A DNA stretch of 64,000 nt from Candidatus Gottesmanbacteria bacterium (GTDB taxonomy: Bacteria; Patescibacteriota; Microgenomatia; JAMCYU01). The stretch lies in contig JAZDMI010000028.1 in the NCBI GenBank assembly GCA_043801155.1, positions 35,389 through 99,388 of the forward strand, given 5' to 3'. Below are positions 10,230 to 63,971 of the stretch, one piece after another. How positions within the stretch are numbered: the first letter of the stretch is position 1; every line of letters begins with the position of its first letter. The notes beneath the pieces were generated by a model, which searched no databases, was not told the DNA's origin, and worked only from the letters and a program-made list of their open reading frames with translations. The position numbers and the translations under genes were made by a program.

Positions 10230-10276
10230 ATCGCTTATAACTTTCTCCGCCTTCGGCGGAACGTTTTATCGGCAAG

Positions 10277-17063: not shown

Positions 17064-17097
17064 CTTGTCAACAATTGACAAGCGCTTAAAATTTTTG

Positions 17098-17226: not shown

Positions 17227-17303
17227 AGCTAAGAATAGCGCTCTACCCGCCTGCAAAAACTGATGCTTTAGCATCTGCGGGCAGGCCGCTGAGCTACGAG
17301 CCC
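17227..17303 (-). pseudogene. 5' portion of a tRNA paralogous to tRNA-Ile (identical D-arm), interrupted by a 40-nt palindromic insertion at 17246-17285 in the D-loop.
   Basis: Minus strand reads GGGCTCG-TA-GCTCAGCGG-[CCTGCCCGCAGATGCTAAAGCATCAGTTTTTGCAGGCGGG]-TAGAGC-G-CTATT-CTTAGC|. No 3' half follows. Confidence 0.35.
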
Positions 17304-23595: not shown

Positions 23596-23778
23596 CTTCT
23601 CGTTTTCCCCTCGAGAAGGTTATCATCGGCCACTAAAAAAGACCCTTGCTCGAGAGATTCCTTAAGACGGTTCCTGACTTTGGTTCGCCGTAGCTTAATG
23701 CGAAGGCGACCTTTTACAGTTGCGGCACAGTCCCAGATTCTCACTGGGTTCCCGTAACCTTAAGGACCAATTTAAAAA
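23596..23778 (-). ncRNA. Cobalamin (AdoCbl) riboswitch, with an expression platform that sequesters the Shine-Dalgarno of the 22990-23592 gene.
   Basis: Minus strand reads CCTTAAGG(P1)..ACGGGAACCCAGTGAGAATCTGGGACTGTGCCGCAACTGTAAAAGG...AAGTCAGGAACC(B12 box)..CTTAAGG(P1'). Then CCTTCTCG-AGGGGAAAA-CGAGAAGG pairs over the GAGAAGG Shine-Dalgarno just before the ATG at 23592. Confidence 0.75.
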
Positions 23779-39811: not shown

Positions 39812-39887
39812 AAAATTATTTTTCTTCACCCTGAGTTTACCGAAGGGTCTTCACAAAGCCAAAAACTTGTGCTAATATGCTTGCGTC

Positions 39888-42212
39888 ATGCCCAGAAAGA
39901 CGAAAATGAAGCGTCAATTACAAGATAAACCTCTTGATTTAATACTCGATAGCATCTTTATTCCTCTTATTTTTATTGCCGTTATCTTAATCAAAATTGG
40001 CAATATCCCGAGATTAATTTTAAGAATTTTGTTTCAATTTTTATTATGGTTTGGCAACTTAAATTTAAAAATATTTACCAAAATAGCTGCCTCGGTAGTT
40101 TATCTATTTCATCATCTTAAAATAAAACAGCCCCATATAAAATTGCCTTCTTTACCAAAGATTAAATTACCAAAATATACAATTCAAAAACCAACTTTAC
40201 CATCAATTATTATCCCCCCATTACCGTCTGTTTATCTTCCCGAAATCCCCTTCCCGACATTATCTCTTAAGATACGCTGGTTTATTATTGGTGTTTTTTT
40301 TACGTTAATTTTTATTTTTTTACCTTTCCAAATTTGGTCTTGGTTATCGCAACTACCCAATCCCCAGTTGTTAACTAATAGAGAGATTCCGCTTACCAGT
40401 AAAATTTTTGACCGTCATGGTACCCTACTTTATGAAATTTATACTGACCAAAATCGTACACCGGTTACTCTCGCTAATATTCCTCAAGATTTAATCAAGG
40501 CAACCATTGCCATTGAAGATAAGCAATTTTATAATCACCCGGGATTTTCTTTACGGGGTATTCTGCGGGCCGCTAAAGAAACTATTGTTAATAAAAGACT
40601 TCAGGGTGGATCAACTATTACCCAACAACTTGTAAGAAGTGCCCTCTTAACTCCTCAACCAACCTTAGAAAGAAAAATCAAAGAAATACTTTTGTCATTT
40701 TGGGCAGAAAGACTTTTTACTAAAGAGCAAATTCTCGAAATGTATTTTAATCAAGTTCCTTACGGTGGCACCAGCTGGGGAATTGAGGCCACTACAGAAA
40801 CATATTTTGGTAAATCGGTTAAGAATCTTTCCTTAGCCGAAGCGTCATTTTTGGCAGCACTACCGGCTTCTCCCAGTGTTTATTCTCCCTTTGGCACTCA
40901 TCCGGAACAGGGTTTGGCTCGGCAAAAAGAGGTTTTAAGGCTTATGCGGGAGCAAGGCTATATATCCAATGAGCAGGAAATTATGGCTCTAAACCAAAAA
41001 CTGGTTTTTCTCCCAGCTAAAACTAATATTAAGGCGCCGCATTTTGTTATGTATATCAAGGATCTATTGGAGAAAAAATATGGGACGCGAAAAGTCGCCC
41101 AGGGAGGTTTACAGGTTATTACCAGTTTAGACCTTTCAATCCAGGAAATGGCTCAAAAGATTGTTACTGATGAAATTACTAATTTGTCTTCGCTTAATGT
41201 TGGCGACGGAGCTGCCTTAATAACCGATCCAAAGTCCGGCCAAATTTTGGCTATGGTCGGCTCCAAAGATTATTTTGATCTTGATGCTGGCGGTAATGTT
41301 AATATAACTTTATCTCTTCAACAACCTGGTTCATCGATTAAGGTCGTTAACTATACCTTGGCCTTAGAAAAAGGCCTGACAGCAGCTAGTATATTAGATG
41401 ATTCACCAATAGCCTTTCAGGTGGCCAGCCAGCCAAATTATATCCCGGTTAATTATGACGGTAAATTCCATGGAAAAGTTACTTTACGGCAAGCATTGGC
41501 TAGTTCTTTTAATATTCCTGCCGTTAAAGTTTTGGCTAGTTTAGGGGTAGAAAATATGATTAATCAAGGACGGTTAATGGGCATTACTACCTGGCGGGAC
41601 ATTGACCGTTATGGTTTATCTTTAACCTTAGGCGGTGGTGATGTAACCATGCTGGATATGGCCAAGGTTTACGGAGTATTAGCTGATCAAGGAAAGAGAC
41701 AAGATATAACACCCATTTTAAAAATTACCGATTATAAAAATCAAATCTTAGAACAAGCATCACCCCAGGATGAGAATGCAGTCGTTAACCCGGGGGTGGC
41801 TTTTATCTTAGCTAATATCTTAAGCGATGATAACGCCAGGAGTGCTGCTTTTGGAACAAATTCACTCCTTAACATTCCCGGAAAATCCGTATCCGTTAAA
41901 ACCGGAACTAGTAATGACCTCCGTGATAATTGGGCGATTGGTTTTACACCATCATATGTGGTAACTACGTGGGTTGGTAATATCGATAACAGTCCGATGG
42001 GAAGGATTGCTTCGGGAATAACTGGAGCCACTCCAATCTGGCACAATATTATGGTTAATTTGCTAAAAGATAAGCCGAATGAACCAATATTGCCCCCAGA
42101 AAATGTTGTCAGAATTGATGCTTGTGGCCGAAGCGAATATTTCTTAAAAGGAACAGAAAAAAATATTAGTTGTGCACCACCACCTACTCCATCCCCCAGC
42201 CCGGTTCAATAA
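39888..42212 (+). CDS. penicillin-binding protein 1A paralog with an extended Pro-rich N-terminus
   Basis: EDKQFYNHPG, QGGSTITQQLVRS, SSIKV and KTGTS motifs. It lies in tandem with the preceding PBP1A gene. Confidence 0.9.
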   Translation: MPRKTKMKRQLQDKPLDLILDSIFIPLIFIAVILIKIGNIPRLILRILFQFLLWFGNLNLKIFTKIAASVVYLFHHLKIKQPHIKLPSLPKIKLPKYTIQKPTLPSIIIPPLPSVYLPEIPFPTLSLKIRWFIIGVFFTLIFIFLPFQIWSWLSQLPNPQLLTNREIPLTSKIFDRHGTLLYEIYTDQNRTPVTLANIPQDLIKATIAIEDKQFYNHPGFSLRGILRAAKETIVNKRLQGGSTITQQLVRSALLTPQPTLERKIKEILLSFWAERLFTKEQILEMYFNQVPYGGTSWGIEATTETYFGKSVKNLSLAEASFLAALPASPSVYSPFGTHPEQGLARQKEVLRLMREQGYISNEQEIMALNQKLVFLPAKTNIKAPHFVMYIKDLLEKKYGTRKVAQGGLQVITSLDLSIQEMAQKIVTDEITNLSSLNVGDGAALITDPKSGQILAMVGSKDYFDLDAGGNVNITLSLQQPGSSIKVVNYTLALEKGLTAASILDDSPIAFQVASQPNYIPVNYDGKFHGKVTLRQALASSFNIPAVKVLASLGVENMINQGRLMGITTWRDIDRYGLSLTLGGGDVTMLDMAKVYGVLADQGKRQDITPILKITDYKNQILEQASPQDENAVVNPGVAFILANILSDDNARSAAFGTNSLLNIPGKSVSVKTGTSNDLRDNWAIGFTPSYVVTTWVGNIDNSPMGRIASGITGATPIWHNIMVNLLKDKPNEPILPPENVVRIDACGRSEYFLKGTEKNISCAPPPTPSPSPVQ

Positions 42213-47996: not shown

Positions 47997-48236
47997 AAAG
48001 CGTATTATATCAAAAAAGAAAAAATCAGAAGATTTCTCTCAAGAAGGCTTCCCGGTCTTAATTCGATTATTAAGCTACTTAACCTGATTTTATCAAAACA
48101 TATCCGATCAATCAAAGTATAAAACCCCAAATCAAGGTGTCCTAATTACATGAAAAATTTATTTGCTCGCTCTCTGGGACGACCCGTGATAGTTAATCTA
48201 ACCATTTTTGAATGACTAACTATTCTTTCTAATCTT

Positions 48237-49190: not shown

Positions 49191-49604
49191 TTACTCCGTT
49201 TTCTGTTGTTCACCGGAGAGTATCCGTAGTAGTTTTACAATTCCCCAAGCCAAAACAGCGTACACTATAATTGCGACCAGTGTTGATGGCTCAAGAACTG
49301 AAGTTGTTTCTACACCTTGGGCAAACCCCCTCCGGAATATTCCTTCAAATGGTAAGATAAAAACTCCGGTTAAACCGTAGATTAATCCCACAAAAGCGCT
49401 TGAGATACTCGCTCCCGTTAACTTAAGAATAAGACGGAAAGCTAAGAGTATTTCCAGTACTCCAAAGAAGAAATAGACTAAATATTCAACCGTCTGAGAA
49501 CTAGTGGCTGTACTTTTAACTGAAATGTCTTTAGTTGTGGTATTCACCACCGGATTGATATTATTTCCTTGTGTAGTTATTGTTTCTTTTGAAATTTCTG
49601 CCAT
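49191..49604 (-). CDS. YggT-family membrane protein
   Basis: YLVYFFFGVLEILLAFRLILKL and a second hydrophobic repeat. Strong Shine-Dalgarno. Confidence 0.55.
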   Translation of the reverse strand: MAEISKETITTQGNNINPVVNTTTKDISVKSTATSSQTVEYLVYFFFGVLEILLAFRLILKLTGASISSAFVGLIYGLTGVFILPFEGIFRRGFAQGVETTSVLEPSTLVAIIVYAVLAWGIVKLLRILSGEQQKTE

Positions 49605-49664
49605 ATTTTTCCACCTCCTTTCAATAAATTAATTTATTTTTATCCTAAACCCGCCCTGTAACCG

Positions 49665-49877
49665 TTATTTAGGTTGTACTATATTCACGTTTACTTTATC
49701 GGGTAATACTACCTGGGTGGCCGGAATGCTTACCTGAACTGGCCCTATCCGCCTTGTTGCCGGAATAACAAAATACATTAGTACAGCGACAAATCCAACA
49801 AGCACGATAATCCCGATCAGAAAACCATACCCTTTCGCTTCTGCTGGAGGAGCTTGACTATTTACAATTGTTGTCAT
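49665..49877 (-). CDS. small membrane protein (70 aa), paralog of the ORF at 50397-50618
   Basis: MTTIVNSQAPP..GFLIGIIVLVGFVAVLMYFVIPA. The leader at 49878-49990 is a near-duplicate of the one at 50619-50720. Confidence 0.55.
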   Translation of the reverse strand: MTTIVNSQAPPAEAKGYGFLIGIIVLVGFVAVLMYFVIPATRRIGPVQVSIPATQVVLPDKVNVNIVQPK

Positions 49878-50038
49878 ATATTTTTCACCGCCTTTATTAT
49901 TATTAAATTATTAATGTTTTTTATACCCCATTTTTGGTAATTTGAGTTTAAGGATCAAAATCCTTCCTGATTGCCACTTTCCTGATTATCGCCTCTTTAG
50001 CTAAGGGAGGATATGGTACCTTACCTTATTATTTGTTT

Positions 50039-50290
50039 TTAACCTTTTCGTAACATCCGGCCACCATAAATAACGACAACTGCACCAATCACGGCAACAA
50101 CAAGACTATAAATGTTGAATCCCGTAACACCTGATTGACCAACTAATCCCATGAGAAAACCACCTACCACAGCTCCAACTACACCCATAATTATGTCCGT
50201 TATTGTACCTTGATTAGAATCGGTTTTCATAATGATCGATGCAATCCATCCTGCCAGTGCTCCAAAAATTATCCAAAGTACTATACCCAT
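50039..50290 (-). CDS. GlsB/YeaQ/YmgE-family stress-response membrane protein
   Basis: MGIVLWIIFGALAGWIASIIM...GVVGAVVGGFLMGLVG signature. Confidence 0.8.
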   Translation of the reverse strand: MGIVLWIIFGALAGWIASIIMKTDSNQGTITDIIMGVVGAVVGGFLMGLVGQSGVTGFNIYSLVVAVIGAVVVIYGGRMLRKG

Positions 50291-50396
50291 ATTTTTTCAC
50301 CTCCTTTAATTAATAAATTTAGTTTTCTTCCTAAGCCTGCCATTTAGTTACTTTTTTATATTACTGTCTAACAATAGGTTTATAATCTGTTTTCGA

Positions 50397-50618
50397 TTAC
50401 TTCGGTTGAGTCACATTCACGTCTATCTTGCTTGGCACATTGACCTGTGGTGCCGGAACGTTCACCTGAACTGCCCCCATGTTTCTTATTGCCGGAATAG
50501 CGAAATATAATAGTACCGCTACAAATCCTATAAGGACTATGATACCGATGAGAAAACCAAACCCTCCTGTATCTTGTGTGGGAGCCTGGGGAGCTGGATT
50601 ATTTACAACTGTTGTCAT
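50397..50618 (-). CDS. small membrane protein (73 aa), paralog of the ORF at 49665-49877
   Basis: MTTVVNNPAPQ..GFLIGIIVLIGFVAVLLYFAIPA. Confidence 0.55.
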   Translation of the reverse strand: MTTVVNNPAPQAPTQDTGGFGFLIGIIVLIGFVAVLLYFAIPAIRNMGAVQVNVPAPQVNVPSKIDVNVTQPK

Positions 50619-50689
50619 ATATTTTTCACCTCCTTCATTATTTTTAAATTATTAATGTTTTTTTATACCCAGACTTTGGTAATTTGAGT

Positions 50690-50875
50690 TTAAGGATTAA
50701 AATCCTCTCTAATTTCAGGTTTCCTCATGACTATTTCTTCGGGTAAATATTTAGCTAAAGCTCTTTCTGCTAGAGCGGTTAAGGTTATTCCCTCAACAAT
50801 AGCTTGTGCCCTGGCGTGTGTTAATAGGTTCGGATTAATAAAGAGTGTCACCCGTTGTTTGCTATTAGTTGCCAT
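50690..50875 (-). CDS. possible ribbon-helix-helix DNA-binding protein (61 aa)
   Basis: KQRVTLFINPNLLTHARAQAIVEGITLTALAERALAKYL has the beta-strand-then-two-helices pattern of CopG/Arc/antitoxin-like proteins. No toxin partner is seen. It overlaps the conserved leader of the 50397-50618 gene by about 30 nt. Confidence 0.35.
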   Translation of the reverse strand: MATNSKQRVTLFINPNLLTHARAQAIVEGITLTALAERALAKYLPEEIVMRKPEIREDFNP

Positions 50876-51308: not shown

Positions 51309-51432
51309 ACTCATTGGAGCATTCATGTGGTTTACTAAAAATGTAAATTCCGAGGTATATGATTTTTTTAAATGGGCTCGCTCGATGGGTCTTCTTCGCT
51401 AAAGCTACGAAAGACGGCACGACGATTCCAGA

Positions 51433-52217: not shown

Positions 52218-52274
52218 ATTTTAATTATACTATATTCGCCGGATGGGACGATTTTCGGACTACGAACTAATTTT

Positions 52275-52979
52275 CTAACCGATATTAGTCTGATTTGATG
52301 ATTTTAGTACCACTGGACTATTGTTCAAATCATTGAATTTATAAATCAAATCATGCAATTTTCTTTTTAAAATTAGTATCGTCAAGGATAGTCCAGCAAA
52401 GAAGTAAAAAATAAATATAACTGGATACATATCTTTCTGATTCCAGAATTTTAGCAAAGCCATAATGTGCAGAATAGTCAGAATAGCAAACGGAGCCTTA
52501 AGGGGAATTCTTATTTTTATAATAATCTCTGCTATCTTTAACAGAATAAATATAACTATTGACCAGAAAGAAAAAAATTTCACCACGTCTTCTATTCCCA
52601 TATCAAATGTACCGCGACCGTTTATACCAAGAGTAGGGGTATTAGCGATAAACCAAATCAGAATTTTTTCTGCCCCTATTCCGATAACCACCATAAATGC
52701 TACCGTTGTAACCTCTAAGATAAGGAATACATAAAAAGGAGCCGTGATAAAAGTAAGAAAACTATCAAATAGATTAAATAGAATGACAGGAAGGGTTTTC
52801 CCCATAATTCCAGTATAGCATAAGAGAAGTAGCGCTATAACACTCCATCTTTTTCCTAGCTCGAGAATCGTAACTCTAATATAAGAACCTTTCGCTTCGC
52901 TCAAGAACCTTGCTGCTTCGCAGTAACCACACAATTGTCTTGTACTTGTGGTGAGCTTGCCGAAAACAGGTCTTGACAA
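52275..52979 (-). CDS. Hypothetical membrane protein. The annotated N-terminus probably belongs to a repeat element, and the true start is likely near 52805 (internal Met, MGKTLPV).
   Basis: Its first 58 or so codons are encoded by repeat family A (52859-52945), which is intergenic at its other two copies. Confidence 0.45.
   Translation of the reverse strand: MSRPVFGKLTTSTRQLCGYCEAARFLSEAKGSYIRVTILELGKRWSVIALLLLCYTGIMGKTLPVILFNLFDSFLTFITAPFYVFLILEVTTVAFMVVIGIGAEKILIWFIANTPTLGINGRGTFDMGIEDVVKFFSFWSIVIFILLKIAEIIIKIRIPLKAPFAILTILHIMALLKFWNQKDMYPVIFIFYFFAGLSLTILILKRKLHDLIYKFNDLNNSPVVLKSSNQTNIG
52859..52945. repeat. Repeat family A, copy 1: core GCTCGAGAATCGTAACTCTAATAT plus about 60 nt of extended similarity to copy 3.
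   Basis: Exact 24-nt core shared with 55040-55063 and 57615-57638. The extension aagaacctttcgcttcgc..aaccttgctgcttcgcagtaacca matches 57639-57700. Confidence 0.6.
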
Positions 52980-54488: not shown

Positions 54489-54698
54489 CTAGAACTTCTT
54501 CAAAAAAAACTTTTTGGTAAAAAGAGAAAGCCTATTTATATGTTCTGATAATCTTATTTTTAAATTATCAGTAATTCCAACATAGAAAGTTTTTCCATCG
54601 CAAAGAAGCATGTAAATATACCAAGTCTTACCTTTATACATAAATGTGGCTTGCGCTGAGCTTTTCGAAGTGCTCCACCTCGTGGACGACCTTAAAAC

Positions 54699-55039: not shown

Positions 55040-55063
55040 GCTCGAGAATCGTAACTCTAATAT
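55040..55063. repeat. Repeat family A, copy 2 (core only)
   Basis: GCTCGAGAATCGTAACTCTAATAT, exact. Confidence 0.6.
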
Positions 55064-55230: not shown

Positions 55231-56487
55231 ATGCGTCCAAAAAAGAAATACTCTAAACTCTTCTGGATCTTCACGATTGGTATATGTGTAATTTTATCTG
55301 GGTTAGCATTTTTAGGATTTTCCATAAGTAAACAATTTGATGATGCAGTAGCTAGTATTCAGTCTAATTTAGTAGATGCGGCAAATGCCAAGATTGTGGG
55401 AGATTTAGTTCGAAGAGGAACGCAGATTAAAGGGGAAACGATGGAAACAGTCGAAGCTAAAGCGATGACTTCTGCTAAAAATTTATCCGAAGTTTCAGTG
55501 CCTGATGACCTGAAGAATTATCAAGCAGTTGCCTCAATCTGGTCTATCAGGATAGCGGCAGCAGCCAGTCAATCAAACGGTTGGGTGAATTTGAAAAATC
55601 AGCCTGACCCTTTCCCTTTAGTTATTAGTGATATTAAAGCCTCAAATCTATTAAAACCAATACTAAAAAATATTTCTGATCTGAAAACAGAGGGATCAAC
55701 AGCGATTCAAAACAAAGACCGCGATGCCATGCGCCAAATTGCCGCCAAACTAATAGTCCAGAACCATTTTCTTAACGCTATTTTGCATTCCCAAGAAGAA
55801 GAAAAAACTACCCTGATCCCTTTTGCCTTAGCGGCTGGTTCAACACTGCAATCAATACCTGATGTTAAGGGAGTTGATGTTACTTGTTCAATTTGTGATT
55901 ACCCTGATGCTTATAAAGTTCATTGGACAGATGCCTTAAAAAAACAATATGGTTGTGACAGCAGGTGTCATAAACAAAATCAACCCGTCCAAGAAGAAGT
56001 AAAATATTCAGAATCTTTATCTTCCTATAGTTATAGCGATAGCAAGCGAGTTGTTTGCACAAACACTAATAAAAGCGGTTCGTTTTGCGTGGAAAAAGCT
56101 GCCCAGGTAACTAATGAACTTATTGACGCCGCTATTGGTTTTACTGAAGGCAGCAGAAATTTTACAGTAGAGCAATGGAATGGCGCGGTTGCTTATGCCA
56201 CAGGTGAAGTAGGAACGCCACCCAGCTGGCCATCAGCAGAAGGCGGGCATAAAGAAGGTGGCATGGGAACTATCAATCAAGGAGATCCGAACCAACCTCA
56301 ACAAAATACCAATTCAAGAAGTTCCCAGTGTGAATTTTACAACAAAGATTGTCCATCTATAATTAATACTCAAAGGCTTGCATGCGCATTGGGAAGTTTG
56401 GGTGATGAAGATAAGAAAACCTATTGTGATAGTATAACTTGTGCAAGTATGTATCAGAATTGCTTAAATGGTAAGGAACCTTATTAG
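55231..56487 (+). CDS. hypothetical secreted Cys-rich protein (418 aa)
   Basis: N-terminal transmembrane segment or signal peptide, and many Cys in the C-terminal half. Confidence 0.45.
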   Translation: MRPKKKYSKLFWIFTIGICVILSGLAFLGFSISKQFDDAVASIQSNLVDAANAKIVGDLVRRGTQIKGETMETVEAKAMTSAKNLSEVSVPDDLKNYQAVASIWSIRIAAAASQSNGWVNLKNQPDPFPLVISDIKASNLLKPILKNISDLKTEGSTAIQNKDRDAMRQIAAKLIVQNHFLNAILHSQEEEKTTLIPFALAAGSTLQSIPDVKGVDVTCSICDYPDAYKVHWTDALKKQYGCDSRCHKQNQPVQEEVKYSESLSSYSYSDSKRVVCTNTNKSGSFCVEKAAQVTNELIDAAIGFTEGSRNFTVEQWNGAVAYATGEVGTPPSWPSAEGGHKEGGMGTINQGDPNQPQQNTNSRSSQCEFYNKDCPSIINTQRLACALGSLGDEDKKTYCDSITCASMYQNCLNGKEPY

Positions 56488-56570
56488 ATTTGGTAAATAA
56501 AAAATCTGACTTTAAAATTGAAACGGCTCTTTTTTAGCTACGGTTTTAATAAATTTAGTTAGAATATCAC

Positions 56571-56672
56571 ATTATTTGCTCGCTTCGTGGGACGATTTTC
56601 GAACTACTGACTGGTTAGAGATTATAGAACATCCAGAGCTAATTCAACGAACCGATAAGTTACTTACTTCTT
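56571..56672 (+). repeat. Repeat family B copy. It encodes the conserved C-terminal peptide ..YLLASWDDFRTTDWLEIIEHPELIQRTDKLLTS* with no start codon.
   Basis: Nucleotide and peptide similarity to 58870-58980, 62484-62609 and 63095-63190. Confidence 0.5.
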
Positions 56673-56763
56673 AAAATCCTAGAAGATCTTAGATTTGTTC
56701 TGCTTCTGCTCGTGTTTTTGTCTTAATCGAGCTGGTCTTGGGTCAACTTGCATGAAACAAAAG

Positions 56764-57522
56764 TTAACCTTTAACTTCAAAAAAGAGGATAGCAATGCCA
56801 AGAATAAAAGCCAGTGCACCAACGATTCTAGCGATCTTTTCTTTTGATTTGCTTTTTTTTAAAGCCATTGGGCCTAAATATCCACCGATTGCCGCACCTA
56901 TCGGTAGAATATAAATAAGGGGTGAATTTGGCCATTTATTGATCCAAACCCATACGGCAAAGCTAGCTAGACAAATTGGCACTTCGGCAAAATCAGTGAC
57001 GACAATTGAATTTTTGCTTTCTCTTCCGACGACAATTTGTCCTGTTGACATTAATGGTCCGTAGCCTCCACCGGAAACAGCTTTGTTAAATGCGCTTATT
57101 ATGCTTAGAATAACCATTTTCCCCCAGCTAAAGGAAAATGATATTTTTAGCAAAACACTTCCTCCCATTATTAAACATAAAATACCGATATAATTTTTCA
57201 GCCATATTCTAGAAATCATGCTTGCCCCGATAAACGCACCAATTAAGGTGGCCACTATACCTAAGGATGCAATAAGCAAAGTTATTTTAAAATCTTCAGA
57301 ATCTTTTTTGAAAATTAATGCATTTTTTAATTTATTATGCCGCCAAGAAGCAATAGCGCCTCCAACCGCTTGAGAAATAAGTATCGAAGGAATAACTAGT
57401 TTTGGATCATAACCAGCAATTATTAATACTGGGGATAGAATTGTTCCATACATCATGCCCAAGTAGCTGTCGATAAATTCGCAGCCAATAGTGATGATTA
57501 GAATTAATAAAACAATGGTCAT
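56764..57522 (-). CDS. TauE/SafE-family (DUF81) membrane transporter
   Basis: Two-repeat polytopic membrane protein with Gly-rich helices (..ISQAVGGAIASW.., ..GAAIGGYLGP..). Confidence 0.6.
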   Translation of the reverse strand: MTIVLLILIITIGCEFIDSYLGMMYGTILSPVLIIAGYDPKLVIPSILISQAVGGAIASWRHNKLKNALIFKKDSEDFKITLLIASLGIVATLIGAFIGASMISRIWLKNYIGILCLIMGGSVLLKISFSFSWGKMVILSIISAFNKAVSGGGYGPLMSTGQIVVGRESKNSIVVTDFAEVPICLASFAVWVWINKWPNSPLIYILPIGAAIGGYLGPMALKKSKSKEKIARIVGALAFILGIAILFFEVKG

Positions 57523-57614
57523 TTTTTGATGATCGTGTATATTATGATATAAAAATCATTCCGAAAACAGTATCAAAATCTTAATAGAATCTAGTAGGCT
57601 TTCTAAAAAATATA

Positions 57615-57715
57615 GCTCGAGAATCGTAACTCTAATATCAAGAACTTTTCTCCGCCAGCTGGTGGATCAAAAACCTTGTTGCTTCGCAATAAGCAAAGCT
57701 TTTACTTCGTAATAA
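57615..57715. repeat. Repeat family A, copy 3: core plus extension. It also contains CCGTAGCTTTAGCGAAGG, which is inverted at 51391-51407.
   Basis: GCTCGAGAATCGTAACTCTAATAT is exact, and the extension matches copy 1. Confidence 0.6.
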
Positions 57716-57843
57716 CCACTCAATTAGTTTGTATTACTTGCCCTTCCGTAGCTTTAGCGAAGGAGGATCAAGGCTTTCTCTGACTTTAGGCTTGTTCAGC
57801 AAATTCGGGAAGAGATAGAGAAAGTGAAACCTTGTATAGTTAT

Positions 57844-58869
57844 TTAAGGAAGCGTCTCGGTAATTAACTCTCCCGACGGTTTATACACCGTTCTAAATTT
57901 ACCGGTTTCATCTGCATCAAGACAATATGCCGTATCGGTCGGACAAGGTTCTTTAAATCCACTTAATTTTCTGTAGCTAAATCCGCCAGAGCTAATTTTT
58001 ACATCACCAACCATTCCTAAAAACTTTTCTTTACCCGTATCAGTATTTATTATTAGTATTCCTTCTTTTAACGAATAGGGGGAGCAATTAAAACAAAGGC
58101 CGAGCGACAAAACAAGATATTTATCTTCAACTTGTAATATGTCAGCTGCTCCTGCAAACCCATCAACGGTATATTTGTTGGATTCCTTTGTTAATTTGTT
58201 TGACCATACTTCTTTATTAGTTACATTTTGTAGGTCTATTTTGTATATTTTATTTACATAATTTGGTTCAGGAACCCCAAGGTCTAACATAAGAGAAACA
58301 TAGATTGCATCATTGCCATTACGCATAGCACTAACCGCCAATCCTATCAAATTGGGAAAGTCGGTTGCAATCATTCTCGGATTTTGTAGCTTTCTAAAAT
58401 CATAGGGATTTGAGTATCCAAGCGATTTAGTTCCTACTGCAGCCATAGCGCCAGTATATGGACCCGACTCAACTTTTACGCCTCCAGTGCCTGAGCCTCC
58501 CTGGTTTGCATGACTATTGGTATAAAAAATAACTTCTTTATCCTCATATGTGCCTAAATACAAACTATTTTCCTTCGGCACATTACTTGTATTTTGTGTT
58601 GGAATTACAGAAACAGAAGTAGGGGAAGGTTTTAGTGATTGTATCTTTTGTTCATTGGTATAGTTTTTTCTATTAGAATAAATTAAAAACCAAGCTGTAG
58701 ATAACAACCAGAGAAAAAAAACTGCAAAAAAGCCAATTTTCCAATAACTAAGAGACGATTTAATTTTTACATCAGGAGATTCTGATTGCAGGTTTGAACC
58801 GGCAGAATCACCAATTGGATTAACTTCGTTCATATTTTTATTATACCAATTTGGTATATTAAGTGCCAA
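57844..58869 (-). CDS. hypothetical membrane-anchored or secreted protein (341 aa)
   Basis: N-terminal transmembrane segment. No motif recognised. Confidence 0.45.
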   Translation of the reverse strand: MALNIPNWYNKNMNEVNPIGDSAGSNLQSESPDVKIKSSLSYWKIGFFAVFFLWLLSTAWFLIYSNRKNYTNEQKIQSLKPSPTSVSVIPTQNTSNVPKENSLYLGTYEDKEVIFYTNSHANQGGSGTGGVKVESGPYTGAMAAVGTKSLGYSNPYDFRKLQNPRMIATDFPNLIGLAVSAMRNGNDAIYVSLMLDLGVPEPNYVNKIYKIDLQNVTNKEVWSNKLTKESNKYTVDGFAGAADILQVEDKYLVLSLGLCFNCSPYSLKEGILIINTDTGKEKFLGMVGDVKISSGGFSYRKLSGFKEPCPTDTAYCLDADETGKFRTVYKPSGELITETLP

Positions 58870-58980
58870 CTGGCTCGCACGATGGTATGATTATCGGAAA
58901 ACAGACTGGTCTTCCGAACTGGAATATCCTGAGTTTACGACAAAAGAGGTAAAGAGGTTTCTATCTTCTAACTACTCTTA
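58870..58980 (+). repeat. Repeat family B copy encoding ..LARWYDYRKTDWSSELEYPEFTTKEVKRFLSSNYS*. It overlaps the 3' end of the P-type ATPase gene on the opposite strand.
   Basis: Similar to 63095-63190 at about 80 percent nucleotide identity. Confidence 0.5.
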
Positions 58981-61393
58981 GATGATAAACAAACTTAAAT
59001 GTCTCCACCACAAAAAACATAAAAATTGATAGACCTATTGCAATCAACCAATAAGCAGGGTTAAGACTGCTTAATCCAAAAAATTGTCTTAAGGAAGGAA
59101 GGGAAAATGGTAAAACTTGTAATCCAAACCCAGCAATAACTGCCACGATTAGCCAGCGATTTTCAAAAAGATGATTTTTCCAGAAAGGGGTCATGAGCGC
59201 TCTTACTGAAAAGACATAAACAAGCGAATTTAAGCCTAGCATCATAAATGCCACAGACCGAGCTGTTACAAGATCGTTGGACACTTTATAGACAACAATA
59301 AAAGAAGTTAAGGTTATCAAACCAGCTATTAAGCTCACAAGCCCTATTAAAGTAGACATCCATTTATTTACCAAGCGTTCACCAGGAAGACGAGGTTTTT
59401 CCTTCATAATGTCAACCCTTTTAGGATCAATTGTCAACGCAAGATCAGGAAATCCATCAGAGACGAGATTCACCCATAAAATTTGCATGGCGGTTATAGG
59501 TAAGGGTAAACCAAGAACAATGCCACCTAAAATGACGACTATCTCTGCAAAAGCGTCACACATAAGATATAAGATAATTTTTCTGATATTCTCAAACATT
59601 GCTCTTCCTTCTTCAATTGCTCCCACTATCGTAGAAAAATTAGAATCAAGAAGCACTAAATCAGCAGACTCCTTGGCAACATCAGTGGCTTCCCCCACAG
59701 CAATACCGATATCTGCCTCATGTAAGGCTGGAGCATCGTTAACACCATCACCCATCATGGCTACTATTTCGCCCCTTTTCTTTAACGCCTCGACGATTGC
59801 TAGCTTTTGATCTGGTGTGGTTTTGGCAAATAAACGGATAATATTTACTTTTCGAGCCAACTCTTCCGCCGAGAGAGCTTCCAGTTCATCACCTGTAATA
59901 ACCTCTTTACTAGAAAGAGAAATACCCAGTTCAGATAAAACGAACTCTGAGGTTTTTGAATAGTCACCAGTAATAACTACTGTGCGGATACCAGCACCCA
60001 TCGCTTGTTCAAGAGCATCTTTGACCCCAACACGGACTGGATCAGAAAAAGCCAACATACCAACCCAAGTAAGCCCACCTTTCCCATCAGAAGCATCTAA
60101 GTCCTGTTTGTCGCTTAATACATCTTTTCGAGCAAATCCAATAAGCCTCTTTCCTTGTTTGGTGAGATTATCGATAATTGAAAAAACTTCCTTTTTCTCC
60201 TTCTCTGATAAGGTTGTCCATTGAAGCAATAGGTCTGGCGCTCCGTTTACATAAAGCCTATTACCACTATCTGACCATTTATGAAGGCTACAGAAAAACC
60301 TCTCCTTAGAAGAAAAAGGTATACTGTCAAGTCTTTGGTGTTCAGAAACGAAATCACTGATAATTGTTCTTCCCCACTCAAAAGCAGCAATGACAATTGG
60401 ATCGTCTAAATCGTTTGCCAAAAGCACCTGTTCCGCCAAATCTTTTTTCTTTCCGATAGTATCAACTACAGTCATTTTCCCTTGAGTTAAGGTTCCTGTC
60501 TTATCAACACAAATAACGGTTACTCCTCCCAAAGTTTCAGCTGCAGCAAGTTTTCTCACCAAACCACGACGCTTTAGAATCTTTTGCATGCCAATAGCTA
60601 ATACAACCGTTAGCGAAACGATCAACCCCTCTGGAATACTGGACACGGCTAAAGCTACAGAAGTGATGAACATGTCCATAACACTGAATCGATAAAGAAT
60701 ACCGATCACAAACACAAGGGTAGTTAATACACCAACTACCACAACTAATTGCCGACTAAACCCCTTAAGTTGCCTCTGAAGGGGAGTATCCTCTTCCGCT
60801 TCTTGTATTTGCAGTGCTATTGCCCCCATTTTAGTATTTGCCCCCGTGCTTTCGACCAACATGACAGCTTGTCCAGCAGAAATCGTCGTTCCCATAAAAA
60901 CTGAGTCACTTTGTATTTTTTTAACAGACACGCTCTCCCCAGTAAGCATAGATTCGTCGAGATAGAGACGGTTCGCATAAGTCAATTTGCCGTCAGCAGG
61001 AACTTTTACCCCTTGACTCAAGATCACAATGTCTCCTGGAACAATTTGTGAAGTTTCAATAGATGCCCGTTTCCCATTCCGAACAACAGTTATCTGATTG
61101 GTAACATAGTGCTTTAAGGCATGCAGGGCATTAGTGGCTTTTCTTTCTTGAATAAATCCCAAGGCAGTGTTAACCACTACGGCTAAAAAGATAATCGTTG
61201 TATCGGGAAGATGTCCAATAATCAGAGTCACTAATCCAGCCAAAAGCAGGACATAAACTAAAGGATTTTTAAGTTGTTGGACAATAAGGAAAAAATGGTT
61301 AGGAGGAGGTTTTTCAGGTAAAACATTCAGACCATATTGTTGCTGTCTTCTTGTTGCCTCTTCCTTTGATAATCCTTGTTCATTTGGAAACAT
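58961..61393 (-). CDS. cation-transporting P-type ATPase (Ca2+/Mg2+-type, P2 subfamily-like)
   Basis: Phosphorylation motif ICVDKTGTLT, GDGVNDAPAL, a TGES-like actuator region, and 10 transmembrane helices. Confidence 0.9.
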   Translation of the reverse strand: MFPNEQGLSKEEATRRQQQYGLNVLPEKPPPNHFFLIVQQLKNPLVYVLLLAGLVTLIIGHLPDTTIIFLAVVVNTALGFIQERKATNALHALKHYVTNQITVVRNGKRASIETSQIVPGDIVILSQGVKVPADGKLTYANRLYLDESMLTGESVSVKKIQSDSVFMGTTISAGQAVMLVESTGANTKMGAIALQIQEAEEDTPLQRQLKGFSRQLVVVVGVLTTLVFVIGILYRFSVMDMFITSVALAVSSIPEGLIVSLTVVLAIGMQKILKRRGLVRKLAAAETLGGVTVICVDKTGTLTQGKMTVVDTIGKKKDLAEQVLLANDLDDPIVIAAFEWGRTIISDFVSEHQRLDSIPFSSKERFFCSLHKWSDSGNRLYVNGAPDLLLQWTTLSEKEKKEVFSIIDNLTKQGKRLIGFARKDVLSDKQDLDASDGKGGLTWVGMLAFSDPVRVGVKDALEQAMGAGIRTVVITGDYSKTSEFVLSELGISLSSKEVITGDELEALSAEELARKVNIIRLFAKTTPDQKLAIVEALKKRGEIVAMMGDGVNDAPALHEADIGIAVGEATDVAKESADLVLLDSNFSTIVGAIEEGRAMFENIRKIILYLMCDAFAEIVVILGGIVLGLPLPITAMQILWVNLVSDGFPDLALTIDPKRVDIMKEKPRLPGERLVNKWMSTLIGLVSLIAGLITLTSFIVVYKVSNDLVTARSVAFMMLGLNSLVYVFSVRALMTPFWKNHLFENRWLIVAVIAGFGLQVLPFSLPSLRQFFGLSSLNPAYWLIAIGLSIFMFFVVETFKFVYHLRVVRR

Positions 61394-61523
61394 AATAATT
61401 CCTTAAGGTTTTATAAACACTGAATGGTTTTTCATATTTGGTATTTTCAGTATACGATATTTTAAGCACAAATATAAAACTTCTAGTGGTCATTACCTAA
61501 GCAAATTTATTATAATGTGATAT

Positions 61524-62462
61524 ATGATCTGGTTATTGTATTTTTGTGTCGGCGTCATTGTTCTTTTACTTTCTACCCATGCCCTGGTTAAACTAACCGA
61601 AAGGCTATCATCAGATTTGCGAATCTCCCCACTAATTATCGGGACAACTGTCGTAGCCCTGGGGACATCACTACCCGAACTTACCGTTTCATTGATTGCT
61701 TCAACAAGGCACGATCTTGGACTGGCACTTGGCAATATCATTGGTTCAAATATCGTCAACATCTTTATGGTGCTGCCCGTAGGCATTCTAATCGGGAAAC
61801 TGAGGATTGGATCAACAAAAACGCAGAGAAACGCTTTACTTCTCTTGGGTGCTACAGTCCTATTTGTTGCCCTACGAATACTTCATTTGCCTGATTTATT
61901 TTCTGGTTTACTTCTAATCGCATTAGCGCTTTTTTTTACGATTGGTGAATATCAACTAGGTGTCTTCGGAAGAACCCACGAAGACGCAAAAGCATTCAAA
62001 AAACATACAAACGGAAGACTAACCTTTGGAGGGATAGCATCCATTATATTCGCTGTTGCGGGGATCATTTTGGGAGGGATTTTGGTAGTTAGCTCGGTTG
62101 AAAACATATCTATAATAACCGATTATTCTACTACAATTCTCGGACTGTCTTTGACTGCCATTGTTACTTCTTTGCCTGAGTTGCTAACCACCATTTTTGC
62201 TCAGAAGGAACACCAAGAAAAAATTACCGTTGGTAATATAATCGGGAGCAATATGTACAATCTCTTATTTATCGGGGGTGTAATAACTCTTTTCTCTCCC
62301 CCAATGATGGTTCCGTTTAGGAACTTTATGTGGTTGATTGCTGCCACTTTATGTTTTGTCTTCATTCTGCGCCGTTTTAGCGGTAAACCTGTCCCCAAAG
62401 GTGTTGGGTTATTACTACTACTCTCCCTGATCGTCTACCTGCTATCGCTAGTTTATATGTAA
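61524..62462 (+). CDS. CaCA-family cation/Ca2+ exchanger (YrbG-like)
   Basis: Two alpha-repeats, GTSLPELTVSLIA and GLSLTAIVTSLPELLTTIFA. Confidence 0.8.
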   Translation: MIWLLYFCVGVIVLLLSTHALVKLTERLSSDLRISPLIIGTTVVALGTSLPELTVSLIASTRHDLGLALGNIIGSNIVNIFMVLPVGILIGKLRIGSTKTQRNALLLLGATVLFVALRILHLPDLFSGLLLIALALFFTIGEYQLGVFGRTHEDAKAFKKHTNGRLTFGGIASIIFAVAGIILGGILVVSSVENISIITDYSTTILGLSLTAIVTSLPELLTTIFAQKEHQEKITVGNIIGSNMYNLLFIGGVITLFSPPMMVPFRNFMWLIAATLCFVFILRRFSGKPVPKGVGLLLLLSLIVYLLSLVYM

Positions 62463-62483
62463 CAACTTATTAAAGAACATTAG

Positions 62484-62624
62484 ATGCTTGATAATTATCT
62501 CATTCACTACTTCAGACGGAACTTGGAAAAATGGTCACAATTTCGGACAACTGACTGGGCAAATTACCTGGAATACCCAAGGTTCACCGCAAAACAAACA
62601 CAGCAATTATTAAACATTCACTAA
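62484..62624 (+). repeat. Repeat family B copy with an intact mini-ORF MLDNYLIHYFRRNLEKWSQFRTTDWANYLEYPRFTAKQTQQLLNIH* (46 aa)
   Basis: The ATG at 62484 follows an in-frame TAG. The peptide is conserved with the other B copies. Confidence 0.45.
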
Positions 62625-62630
62625 TAAAGC

Positions 62631-63038
62631 CTAAATTAACCCCTCCCAGGGTGGAAGTTCATAATTGCCAGCTGGTTCTGTCCTGACACTTTTCTCACTA
62701 CCAGTTCTCCTAATAAAAATCACATCGAGCATACCATCTTGTTTGAGCTTGAAGGCAGCCTCTCCGATATTTATCTCTGTCTGCTCAGGAAAATAATCAG
62801 AAGATATTGTTCTTGCAGTTCTTGCTATCTCAATTGCTCCGCAACATGATTCGCGAGACCATAAACGTTTAGGAGTTTTTTCGAAAAGCTCATGAAGAAA
62901 ATTTAGAAAAGAATTTGCTGTTTTAGAATCTAATCCTTCTAGGGATATAAACGGGCGAACTTGCCCAAAGGTTAGAGGTTTTCTTTGCCTTGTCTCCAGG
63001 GCCCCTAGACTCTTCTCGCTTTCCAAACCCTGAGCCAT
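62631..63038 (-). CDS. hypothetical protein (135 aa)
   Basis: ORF only. Confidence 0.45.
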   Translation of the reverse strand: MAQGLESEKSLGALETRQRKPLTFGQVRPFISLEGLDSKTANSFLNFLHELFEKTPKRLWSRESCCGAIEIARTARTISSDYFPEQTEINIGEAAFKLKQDGMLDVIFIRRTGSEKSVRTEPAGNYELPPWEGLI

Positions 63039-63094
63039 AAACAGAGTATAACAACACTGTGTTCATATTTCAAGCTATAGGACTTATGCTCGCA

Positions 63095-63196
63095 CGATGG
63101 TATGATTATAGAACAATTGACTGGGCAAATGAGCTTGAATACCCAGAATTTACAACGAAGGAAGTTCAGAGATTCCTAACAAATTAAAACTGTGTG
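63095..63196 (+). repeat. Repeat family B copy with the mini-ORF MLARWYDYRTIDWANELEYPEFTTKEVQRFLTN* (33 aa)
   Basis: Starts at an ATG. The peptide is conserved with the copy at 58870-58980. Confidence 0.45.
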
Positions 63197-63203
63197 CAAT
63201 AAT

Positions 63204-63971
63204 CTACCAGAATCTCCATCCTTTTAAAGCTCTTTCATAAACTCGATAGGGTTTAGCACCAATAAACACTTTACCGTTGATAAAAATGGTCGGTGTCCCA
63301 TAGATGTGGGTTTTTTGAAGTTCATTCATCTGGTTATCAACTGCATCACGAGTAGAGGGATCAGCTATACACTCTCTGATATCAGAAAGATTATAACCAA
63401 CATTTGAGGCGAATTTCTCGATATTGTCAATGTTACCAATATCGTTTTTATCGGCAGCGAATATCTTGTCATTAAGCTGCCAAAACTTATCCTTATCTTG
63501 TTTGTAGGCACAATAACCAAATTCAGACAAGAAATTAGTCTGGTCTTTAACTGGAAAATGGGCAAAGATAAAACTCACTTTGTTATTTTTAACCAACTTT
63601 TGAATCAATGGATAAGCCTTGCGGGTGTAATCACAGCTATAGCAACCAATAAAAACAATCTTATCTTTGGCGTCGTCACCCTTTGTAGGGAAAAGGCTAA
63701 GGTCAACATTATTGAGGATCAAATCTTTTTCTGTCGGCTTCTCTAGATTACATTGAGTAGCAACTTGAGAGACTTTATTGTTCTCGCCCGCAGGATCAAA
63801 GGCACAAAAACCGCTTTGGTTCAATCCGTTACAACTGCCATAGAGATAATAGTTGTAGGCGCCTTTCACCGTAAAAAAGGTGCTTCCAACCGTCAGAATG
63901 ACAAAAATCCAAGAAATAATCTCAAAATGTTTATTAAAAATACGGGCAGCAATTACAGAACGGTTTAACAA
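63204..63971 (-). CDS. DsbA-like thiol:disulfide oxidoreductase with an N-terminal transmembrane anchor. A TTG start is likely.
   Basis: CxxC motif GCYSCDY in a thioredoxin-fold context and the C-terminal GTPTIFINGK motif. The first in-frame start after the upstream stop is TTG at 63969-63971. Confidence 0.6.
   Translation of the reverse strand: MLNRSVIAARIFNKHFEIISWIFVILTVGSTFFTVKGAYNYYLYGSCNGLNQSGFCAFDPAGENNKVSQVATQCNLEKPTEKDLILNNVDLSLFPTKGDDAKDKIVFIGCYSCDYTRKAYPLIQKLVKNNKVSFIFAHFPVKDQTNFLSEFGYCAYKQDKDKFWQLNDKIFAADKNDIGNIDNIEKFASNVGYNLSDIRECIADPSTRDAVDNQMNELQKTHIYGTPTIFINGKVFIGAKPYRVYERALKGWRFW

Follow-up and report, generated by a model that had tools for sequence, protein, structure and literature searches.

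The right-hand part of the window (the whole 64-kb stretch of DNA analysed here, from a Candidatus Gottesmanbacteria contig) holds four copies of a sequence of ~100 nt, accompanied by one or two truncated ones, all on the + strand and all in one reading frame. The four copies share the frame L[AE][RKS]W..[FY]R[TK][TI]DW...[LI]E[YH]P[ER][FL]...L, closed by a stop codon, and a DNA profile drawn mainly from other genomes matches them with E values of 5e-14 to 2e-27, only one remnant otherwise falling below 1e-4 in the window. The copies, their remnants and the genes between them are as follows.

48159-48189, + strand: probable c1-like remnant, YLLALWDDP then stop; 22 of 26 bases as in c1, including the left flank ttatt
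51376-51388, + strand: doubtful remnant, GCTCGCTCGATGG only, a 13-mer with one mismatch (E 8, not significant)
52232-52270, + strand: truncated remnant, IFAGWDDFRTTN then stop, site part only (E 9e-6 with a site-only profile)
56576-56674, + strand: copy c1, core TTGCTC, ~34-nt site part at 56578-56611, tail codons up to a TAA stop, peptide LLASWDDFRTTDWLEIIEHPELIQRTDKLLTS then stop (nhmmer E 5e-14)
56675-58850: cargo unit c1-c2, with a TauE/SafE exporter gene (56764-57522, - strand) and the gene of a 341-aa membrane protein (57844-58869, - strand)
58851-58873: left arm of c2, 23 nt, ttggtatattaagtgccaactgg, translating as GILSANW
58871-58981 (58851-58981 with the left arm), + strand: copy c2, TGG-CTC core at 58871-58876, tail LARWYDYRKTDWSSELEYPEFTTKEVKRFLSSNYS then stop, no canonical start codon (E 1e-24)
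58961-62462: cargo unit c2-c3, with a P-type ATPase gene (58961-61393, - strand) and a Na/Ca exchanger gene (61524-62462, + strand)
62523-62624, + strand: copy c3, within a 46-aa ATG ORF (62484-62624), tail from 62523 LEKWSQFRTTDWANYLEYPRFTAKQTQQLLNIH then stop (E 3e-16)
62631-63038, - strand: cargo unit c3-c4, a 135-aa protein without a Pfam match
63086-63187, + strand: copy c4, a 33-aa ATG ORF, MLARWYDYRTIDWANELEYPEFTTKEVQRFLTN then stop, core ATGCTC (E 2e-27, the best profile match)

The four copies and their common frame had been described in the initial annotation, and the profile places them far beyond chance. Three shorter remnants were also listed there: that at 52232-52270 is significant and shows the same type of truncation, after WDDFRT, as two copies at locus L001 (at 2549 and 3307); that at 48159-48189 went undetected by the general profile in the window search and is probably real on the strength of its similarity to c1; that at 51376-51388 is doubtful. 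The stop was said to lie at the same position, which is only approximately so (codon 32-37), and the statement that two copies begin with ATG and the others lack starts is correct for c3, c4 and c2, c1 having a TTG start and a 32-aa ORF. Nor do the copies always lie between convergent or divergent genes, as c2 and c4 are each found between two - strand genes; c2 and the 3' end of the P-type ATPase gene have 21 nt in common, among them the c2 stop. The placement of all copies on a single strand had gone unnoticed. The source annotation apparently has no ORF for c1 and c2, since its accession numbering leaves no gap, and the peptides of c3 and c4 are absent from the protein collection. Related peptides occur in 119 database proteins. 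Within the 64-kb window, no recombinase gene or tRNA adjoins the copies. Neither the cargo of the window (ATPase, exchanger, DsbA, sulfatase) nor its GC content looks plainly foreign, which counts against an integrative-element origin; at other loci the cargo is island-like, including restriction-modification genes, AAA_21, HTH_17, DUF5677 and an IS transposase.

Homology places the motif at the very C-terminal end of large serine recombinases (LSRs) from Patescibacteria. Full-length parent genes ending in the motif, a search for which had been suggested at the outset, were found at two loci. Locus L035 carries an intact 528-aa ORF (257-1843) that matches Resolvase (PF00239, 73.5 bits), Recombinase (PF07508, 55.2) and Zn_ribbon_recom (PF13408, 37.2) above the curated cut-offs, and the open frame of 540 codons at L051 encodes the same three domains, its catalytic motif being AFVRVSTNEQ. 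No other intact integrase-plus-tail gene was seen; the ~30 further recombinases that end in the motif, representing at least five subfamilies, are fragments, all of them N-terminally truncated. In L006 and ~30 proteins the motif follows straight after the LSR C-terminal sequence ...KPFD.IL.YADRQ.W, PF07508 and PF13408 are matched in relatives, and a tail profile matches the last 33 residues of L035, L051, P0193, P0299, P0181, P0013 and others with 50-77 bits. Diverged tail homologues (IEYPTIY, IPHPSVY) accompany diverged recombinases. The LSR domains themselves are absent from the window copies, all domain matches coming from parents elsewhere. Several window copies keep an integrase 3' remnant of 8-13 codons on their left. 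The left flank of c1 (56555-56578) translates as ...LVRISHYL, similar to the recombinase C-termini ...DLVRISSNW (L049, adjoining a tRNA-Asn) and VRIRNGW (P0317). The left arm of c2 is identical in DNA over 23 nt to the sites at L024, L053 and L088, where the frame reads ...NEAKLGILSANW, the C-terminus of P0166/P0135-type LSRs. The first 13 codons of the c3 ORF, MLDNYLIHYFRRN, correspond to a degenerate recombinase C-terminus (compare PFDTILNYADRQAW), and its left arm falls into one class with those of P0007, L074, L080 and L098.

It has to be asked whether the copies could instead be genes for an independent peptide of ~33 aa, e.g., a regulator or directionality factor that works on the recombinase in trans, a reading akin to the tiny secreted or regulatory peptides of the initial annotation. 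The tail frame is under purifying selection, 85 of ~111 copies have an intact frame that stops at codon 33-40, and c3 and c4 have an ATG start, as does the boundary codon of ~15% of copies. However, function as a recombinase C-terminus explains the selection equally well, and this boundary ATG is only ~1.7-fold above the expectation from base composition, much of it supplied by one left-arm class, so that starts are not clearly enriched. The boundary codon varies among 95 copies (W 26, M 14, L 13, K 10 and others), c2 and many other copies have no start, the copies show no consistent promoter or ribosome-binding site, and the motif has no Pfam family. Moreover, in all 240 database proteins examined it is C-terminal, never N-terminal or internal, and it is in frame with any preceding recombinase remnant. 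An independent small-protein gene was rejected on these grounds, and a trans-acting peptide is highly improbable.

The conservation of the copies falls into two parts. Among 95 non-redundant copies, information content jumps from ~0.1 to more than 1 bit at -10 (GCTCG), and the conservation of solo copies begins abruptly at the TGG-CTC core. Between -10 and +23 even sites with four- or six-fold degeneracy are fixed (CTC 91%, CGA 92%, ACA 88%), whereas from +27 on degenerate sites vary freely. In the same vein, pS is 0.47 in the site part versus 0.72 in the distal part, where pN/pS is 0.28/0.72 across the 95 copies; in a stretch unused for retrieval, pN/pS is 0.44 in frame versus 0.77 and 1.36 out of frame. 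Constraint acts on the DNA itself over the first ~34 nt and on the protein alone over the following ~60 nt. The earlier remark that nucleotide changes are often codon-compatible, with Ka/Ks proposed as a check, is borne out by these ratios and by c2 versus c4, which past the first 30 nt differ by 12 synonymous and 4 non-synonymous codons.

The 138 DNA-level copies at 98 loci are all co-oriented within their locus, with none of ~40 secondary copies inverted. This orientation and the sharp 5' boundary bear on the possibility that the copies are ordinary pseudogene debris, i.e., that recombinase genes were randomly deleted and their last 100 nt survived without any site-specific process. In keeping with such decay, ~15% of the copies elsewhere are frameshifted or truncated, and the remnants preceding the tails vary in length, from 8 codons in c2 to ~175 aa in L006 and ~300 aa in P0299. 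Yet random deletion predicts neither the common boundary at -10 in 95 copies, nor strict co-orientation, nor an exact left arm of ~23 nt that is identical across genomes, and truncated copies always keep the same first ~30 nt. We regard this explanation as unlikely. Random frame-disrupting indels, together with an IS-end or MITE structure bearing terminal inverted repeats, had been named beforehand as refuting evidence; the disrupted copies supply only half of this, since the copies have no inverted repeats, and a MITE or IS end was rejected on this basis and on the co-orientation of 138 of 138 copies. The earlier suggestions of a decayed insertion element 3' end or a C-terminal recombination cassette came close: the copies are a recombinase gene 3' end plus a site, cut off at a sharp, site-specific 5' boundary and not at random, and the parent is an LSR integrative element, not an IS. 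Two further candidates were discarded. An integron attC array has only co-orientation in common with the copies, whose fold z-scores lie between -1.1 and +1.3 for either strand and which come with no IntI. A structured RNA is not indicated, as a search of Rfam was empty at gathering thresholds and, for 56300-63400, also at E<=1, and folding energy is not significant.

As a rule, LSRs act on two half-sites that form an imperfect inverted repeat around a central dinucleotide. When 10 of the present sites were scanned for dyads, no symmetry between left and right arms was detected (40-50% complementarity at best, with no common centre), and the left-arm class conserved over 23 nt does not repeat the right arm in inverted form. 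Two thirds of solo copies have a left flank without a recognisable recombinase remnant, so whether a given site is attL or attP-like is uncertain. The one presence/absence polymorphism, that of a 2.7-kb unit between loci L057 and L093, hints at recombination at the site, but homologous recombination accounts for it just as well because its junction lies inside a 27-nt identical stretch.

In these LSR families there are two kinds of ending, the frame running either into the motif tail or into a tRNA 3' end in reverse complement. Both kinds join the recombinase in constant register, at the common TGG-CTC core, and in 35 of 36 tRNA-type tails DSN (GATTCGAAC, the reverse complement of the T-loop) stands exactly 4 residues past the W. 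The integrase 3' end is overlapped antisense by tRNA genes at L018 (Gln) and at L042, L047 and L049 (Asn). The latter three, all metagenome loci, each contain, in this order, a solo tail, 4-6 kb of cargo and a recombinase remnant reading into tRNA-Asn, all co-oriented. This is the layout of an element flanked by attL and attR with the integrase beside its target; it is not visible inside the window, and L029 and L096 have no junction at the downstream tRNA-Asn. In native tails GAAC lies at +13 to +16 versus +8 to +11 in tRNA tails, i.e., 5 bp farther from the core. According to the published rule for attP versus attB, the zinc-ribbon-domain motif lies 5 bp farther out in attP (PMC3783163). The GAAC displacement agrees with this rule but is no more than suggestive, the T-loop being universal in tRNAs.

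These tails also bear on a reading in which the copies are a dispersed host-encoded target, either a small gene or a repeat resembling attB, for insertion of recombinase elements, the fusions being accidental and the tail not native. Solo copies do far outnumber recombinase-linked ones, and most left flanks are unrelated sequence. However, an attB needs a conserved left half-site, and information upstream of -10 is close to zero; the tail is in frame with the recombinase, and purifying selection acts on that frame, in at least five subfamilies and two intact genes, diverged tails follow diverged recombinases, and the first 30 nt of the tail mimic a tRNA 3' end with the attP-type 5-bp shift. 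Such a host target is very unlikely.

We consider it likely that each copy is the far side of an LSR attachment site plus the ~33 codons with which the recombinase frame is completed across that site, and that the window holds a co-oriented array of relics. The integrase gene would lie at one end of the element, reading outward, with attP within its last ~35 codons. In the uninterrupted P-O-P' form the gene would end in ...W followed by L(E/A)(R/K)W..FRT.DW...LEYPEF..K.....L and a stop. Integration would occur at the TGG-CTC/GCTC core, which is also a tRNA gene 3' end read antisense; that recombination takes place there is our inference. The integrase frame would afterwards enter the tRNA (...W followed by LPRxDSN...), and the native tail-coding segment would be moved to the opposite end of the element. 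Recurrent integrations at the same place, with loss of integrase bodies, would leave co-oriented site-plus-tail relics bounding blocks of cargo. In the window the array would span at least 56.5-63.2 kb, probably starting from 48 kb, and presumably ends at a tRNA beyond 64 kb. By their sequence, the window copies with a left integrase remnant look like integrase-less P-O-P' sites. The tail may matter to integrase function, e.g., if the full protein is made from the excised form only.

Like the sites of known LSRs (LI/A118, Bxb1 and phiC31), the present ones go with a parent of Resolvase, Recombinase and zinc-ribbon domains, are short and DNA-constrained (~34 nt on one side and ~23 nt on the other) and carry a conserved motif whose distance from the core is 5 bp greater in the element than in the target (PMC3783163). 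Unlike them, they lie inside the integrase's own 3' coding end, have tRNA gene 3' ends as targets, show no inverted-repeat symmetry in the 10-site dyad scan and encode a conserved 33-aa C-terminal extension across the crossover. The archaeal SSV-type 'suicidal' integrases are tyrosine recombinases whose gene is split by integration into a tRNA gene, its parts coming to lie at opposite ends of the element (PMC8371274). An attachment site within an integrase gene that is partitioned by tRNA integration is common to both systems, whereas here the enzyme is a bacterial (patescibacterial) serine recombinase and the last ~33 codons alone are separated; an SSV-type integrase proper was rejected because the parents are serine, not tyrosine, recombinases, and the likeness is one of mechanism only. 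As in the Islander tandem arrays of tRNA-gene genomic islands, co-oriented att repeats bound successive cargo blocks beside a conserved target gene, and older units are without the integrase and increasingly decayed with distance (PMC4383910), the repeats here being the integrase's own tail and not tRNA fragments. In mycobacteriophage integration-dependent immunity, which relies on a tyrosine integrase, attP lies in the repressor ORF and integration removes a degradation tag (PMC3694055). There too integration at an attP inside an ORF alters the C-terminus of a protein, whereas here the ORF is that of the serine integrase itself and the functional effect of the swap is putative. Integron cassette arrays (attC) resemble the window in their co-oriented sites between short cargo units without a recombinase of their own, and differ in having IntI and hairpin-forming palindromic attC sites; the present cargo is multi-gene and on both strands, and the site is protein-coding. 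Tandem accretion with integrase-less members, to which the present array can be likened, is known from CIME/ICE accretion and SCC composite islands.

It is possible, and proposed here tentatively, that Patescibacteria possess a broad LSR family with attP in its own 3' coding end and attB in a generic tRNA 3' end (CCA/acceptor plus T-loop, antisense), in which integration would swap off a conserved C-terminal domain of 33 aa and the complete enzyme would come from the excised form only. If this is true, the archaeal 'suicidal' integrases would have a bacterial counterpart among serine recombinases, one with a built-in directionality switch, and integrase-less cassettes bounded by these sites would accumulate in integron-like co-oriented arrays, as in this window. 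The finding points to bacterial integrases that carry the attachment site in their own gene and insert at tRNA gene ends.

The window belongs to a 107-kb contig of a Candidatus Gottesmanbacteria MAG (Microgenomates/Patescibacteria), and two proteins encoded in it match NCBI records of this MAG exactly. Reading and translating the sequence confirmed that the window holds four genuine copies of one unit of about 100 nt, accompanied by shorter stretches of unequal standing:

56576-56674, + strand: copy c1, from sequence reading and translation
58871-58981, + strand: copy c2, from sequence reading and translation
62523-62624, + strand: copy c3, within a 46-aa ATG ORF starting at 62484
63086-63187, + strand: copy c4, a 33-aa ATG ORF
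52232-52270, + strand: shortened copy, statistically supported
48159-48189, + strand: shortened copy, with a likeness specific to c1
51376-51388, + strand: candidate shortened copy, not significant

On translation, c1-c4 share the frame L-[AE]-[RKS]-W-x-x-[FY]-R-[TK]-[TI]-D-W-x3-[LI]-E-[YH]-P-[ER]-[FL]...L, followed by a stop. All window copies lie on the + strand, a regularity that the initial annotation did not mention. Two of its other statements do not hold: it had granted start codons to two copies only, and c1 begins with TTG; it had placed the copies always between convergent or divergent genes, and c2 and c4 each lie between same-strand genes. Enrichment of start codons at the boundary codon is weak. 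No terminal inverted repeats were found at the window copies, no Pfam family matched the four peptides, and Rfam gave no relevant hit at gathering thresholds and none at all at E<=1. Because neither strand folds better than shuffled sequence, an RNA element, a terminator or a MITE hairpin was ruled out; an alternative genetic code was rejected since long ORFs read normally in table 11. The composition of the array region is not distinct in the GC profile, and the promoter scan gave no excess over shuffles.

A peptide profile search yielded 12 and then 119 database proteins with the motif; these 119 are 33-228 aa long, lack annotation and in all cases carry the motif at the extreme C-terminus. 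Scans of reference genomes and JGI metagenomes added 14 and 80 loci, the named genomes being mostly Patescibacteria MAGs (Woesebacteria, Roizmanbacteria, Dojkabacteria, Saccharibacteria), with a few bins labelled Bacteroidales or Gammaproteobacteria. As many as 30 of the 80 metagenome copies lie <=300 nt from a contig end, versus at most 16 expected, an excess compatible with a junction, repeated or variable among strains, at which assemblies break. No relative was found in viral contigs, and the circularity test revealed no circular contigs.

At one of these loci, L006, the frame 5' of the motif encodes the coiled-coil region at the C-terminus of a large serine recombinase. A search with this fragment retrieved 120 relatives with Recombinase (PF07508) and recombinase zinc-ribbon (PF13408) domains, all ending in '...KPFD.IL.YADRQ.W' and then one of a few continuations. 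The first is the window motif (database proteins P0013, P0036, P0098 and others), the second comprises other conserved tails, e.g., LPLVDAFRNREIEF..., and the third (LPRLDSNQGP, CARQDSNLQPTD, RPQRDSNPCFRRERAMS) corresponds to a tRNA 3' end read in reverse complement, in which W is TGG, i.e., CCA, and DSN is GATTCGAAC, i.e., the T-loop. At least five different subfamilies of recombinases have C-termini that are followed by the motif. The initial annotation had suggested looking for full-length genes that end in it, and these do exist: locus L035 (257-1843) encodes an intact 528-aa ATG ORF with Resolvase, Recombinase and Zn_ribbon_recom domains above Pfam cut-offs and the C-terminus ...SSNSYW-LERWYDYRTTDWVNYLEYPEFTTKEVNRFLQI before the stop, and locus L051 contains an unbroken frame of 540 codons with the catalytic motif VRVSTNEQ and the window motif at its end. 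Only these two intact integrase-plus-tail genes were seen. When recombinase proteins were compared with the window (tblastn), they matched the tails only; neither a recombinase body nor any remnant exceeding ~13 codons was present, and within the window no tRNA or recombinase is visible beside the array. An AlphaFold2 prediction for P0193 (11 sequences) has a helical tail, but with pLDDT <40 the model is unusable.

A second conserved recombinase tail (W-LPLVDAFRNREIEFGFSLQNVRTVFE...; L011 3107-3199, P0074, P0110, P0118, P0196) occurs solo and also adjoining the first type, and P0196 carries both types in tandem in one frame. The tail families seem modular in their sequences, with a common W..D.FR(T/N) site part and differing distal parts. 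Additionally, the 385-aa ORF P0242 (L099 10001-11158), in which a DDE transposase fragment is in frame with the C-terminal half of a recombinase and its tail, is an IS-disrupted integrase.

The anatomy of the repeat was resolved by aligning 95 non-redundant copies on the invariant W codon, with position 0 at its first base:

5' of -10: conservation absent
-10 (GCTCG): conservation begins abruptly
-10 to ~+23: four- and six-fold degenerate positions fixed (Leu CTC 91%, Arg CGA 92%, Thr ACA 88%)
+27 to the stop: degenerate positions free, codon positions 1 and 2 conserved

The fixation of CTC, CGA and ACA between -10 and ~+23 occurs in a genome of 37% GC. Pairwise counts gave pS = 0.47 in this first part, pS = 0.72 (saturated) with pN = 0.28 in the distal part, and ~0.7 for each in the upstream control. 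Together with the pattern at degenerate sites, these values indicate that the unit is bipartite: a DNA site of ~34 nt, which is coding as well, is followed by ~60 nt conserved as protein only. Over ten codons without a role in retrieval, pN/pS is 0.44 in frame versus 0.77 and 1.36 in the other frames. The shortened copies in the window and in locus L001 retain the site part only. Of ~111 distinct copies, ~85 have kept the frame intact, and roughly 15% carry a frameshift or truncation.

The junction with tRNA genes is held in a single register: in 35 of 36 tRNA-type tails, irrespective of the tRNA, DSN stands exactly four residues past W. At the DNA level, ...tcgtcaagctTGGCTC is continued by ctcgggtaggattcgaacc (tRNA-Asn, antisense) in L047 and by gagaaatggtcacaatttcgg (tail) in L006, and the last four bases of tRNA-Asn read GCTC in reverse complement. 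A tRNA gene overlaps the 3' end of the recombinase in L018 (Gln) and in L042, L047 and L049 (Asn). The GAAC motif lies 5 bp farther from the core, TGG-CTC, in native tails than in tRNA tails, which fits the published shift of the zinc-ribbon-domain motif between attP (element site) and attB (target site) in serine-integrase sites (PMC3783163). A scan of 10 sites for dyad symmetry found no common centre; the putative crossover dinucleotide is within or adjoining TGG-CTC. The window itself carries a tRNA-Ile gene with anticodon TAT (17097-17169), which is uncommon in bacteria, and two tRNA-Met genes (10276-10348 and 13575-13645), all on the - strand and none adjoining a tail copy.

Orientation is uniform well beyond the window: all 138 DNA-level copies point in the same direction as the others in their own locus, with none inverted among ~40 secondary copies, and the spacing varies between ~0.1 kb and several kb. 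Three loci (L047, L042 and L049) have a recombinase remnant running into tRNA-Asn and, 4-6 kb upstream of this remnant, a solo tail (one lacking the recombinase body). Units of this kind carry, among other cargo, restriction-modification genes, an AAA_21 protein, HTH_17/MerR excisionase-like genes, DUF5677 and an IS transposase. To the left of one third of the copies, 8-15 codons of a recombinase C-terminus are recognisable. In the window, c2 shares all of its left 23 nt (58851-58873) with sites in L024, L053 and L088 reading ...NEAKLGILSANW, the c1 left flank LVRISHYL is similar to DLVRISSNW beside tRNA-Asn in L049, and the c3 left flank MLDNYLIHYFRRN is similar to PFDTILNYADRQAW. Judging by these left-arm remnants, the window copies resemble joins at which the right end of an integrase-less unit meets the left end of the unit that follows. 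In the other two thirds of copies the left flanks are unrelated, as expected for outer (attL-type) or eroded junctions. A 2.7-kb integrase-less unit between two tail sites in L057 (3228-5902) is precisely absent from a related contig (L093, position 2297), where the left arm of site B meets the tail of site C; because this junction falls within a 27-nt identical stretch, the comparison does not discriminate between site-specific and homologous recombination, which account for it equally.

Several further features accompany the array or lie elsewhere in the window:

58840-58869, - strand: strong sigma-70-like promoter match (TTGGCA-18-TATAAT with TG, 11/12), serving a divergent 341-aa gene and overlapping the conserved c2 left arm
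52859-52882, 55040-55063 and 57615-57638, + strand: exact 24-mer GCTCGAGAATCGTAACTCTAATAT, three times in the window
57650-57790, also 52885-52935, + strand: run of short GC-rich hairpins (ccgccagctggtgg, ttgcttcgcaataagcaa, cccttccgtagctttagcgaaggagg) 3' of the 24-mer
3168-3209 and 17246-17287: palindrome pair similar to these hairpins
54489-54641, - strand: 50-aa ORF (MYKGKTWYIYMLLCDGKTFYVGITDNLKIRLSEH...) directly after a sulfatase gene, inside the array region
49600-50730: ~740-bp tandem duplication (repeat families D1, D7, D9, D11; 75-92% identity) with paralogous small membrane-protein genes at 49665-49877 and 50397-50618, both on the - strand
38330-42000: pair of neighbouring paralogues 2.7 kb apart, with stretches 72-82% identical (D3, D6, D12)
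23648-23778, - strand: cobalamin riboswitch (Rfam RF00174, 40.7 bits, exceeding the gathering score)
21897-22030: short-period repeat of GG(A/T)GT(T/A)GG-type units at spacings of 12-18 nt, probably a low-complexity coding repeat

The 24-mer recurs exactly in L046, L047 and L064 and with one mismatch in L029, in these four 0.5-1 kb upstream of a tail, and it is always co-oriented with tails. Its first two window copies and that of L047 lie ~140-190 nt 5' of a + strand gene and, since it ends in TAATAT, it could be either a promoter or a further site of the island system to which the tails belong. The hairpins that follow it are partly common to its copies and have no Rfam match. By eye, the 50-aa ORF looks like a fragment of a GIY-YIG nuclease.

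We conclude with high confidence that the supposed 'mini-peptide' is a detachable tail that forms the C-terminus of serine integrases and is fused to the attachment site of these enzymes, and that the window contains an array of such relics. An exchange of tails at the att site is a likely, if less secure, route to it: attP would be embedded in the final ~35 codons of the integrase gene, integration at a tRNA 3' end would substitute tRNA-derived codons for the tail, and the native tail would be relocated to the opposite end of the element. A co-oriented array could then arise through recurrent events combined with loss of the integrase body. The distal tail probably matters for the enzyme, because it is under protein-level selection; conceivably, a complete integrase would be encoded by the excised form alone. 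A regulatory role of the tail is doubtful.

Short sites and independence of host factors make serine integrases prized tools for genome engineering. The window array resembles tandem islands at tRNA genes and SCC-type composite islands. The parent protein belongs to the large serine recombinases. As of 2014, no serine integrase was on record as targeting tRNA genes (PMC4383910), and a 2021 paper described integrases that split their own gene as confined to archaea (PMC8371274). The closest mechanistic parallels are the archaeal SSV-type 'suicidal' tyrosine integrases (PMC8371274) and integration-dependent immunity, in which attP lies within a repressor ORF and integration strips a C-terminal tag (PMC3694055). 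Nothing relevant on serine recombinases in the Candidate Phyla Radiation (CPR) turned up in the literature collection that was searched. If the proposed mechanism is true, this integrase family would recognise features common to many tRNA 3' ends, accepting different tRNAs in one register (35/36), and would rewrite its own C-terminus upon integration, a natural state-dependent switch; such integrases might possibly find ready-made landing sites in any genome. For CPR annotation, this reading accounts for hundreds of orphan 'hypothetical proteins' of 30-150 aa and for many contig breaks, and it provides a marker, the tail, delimiting genomic islands where composition is uninformative.
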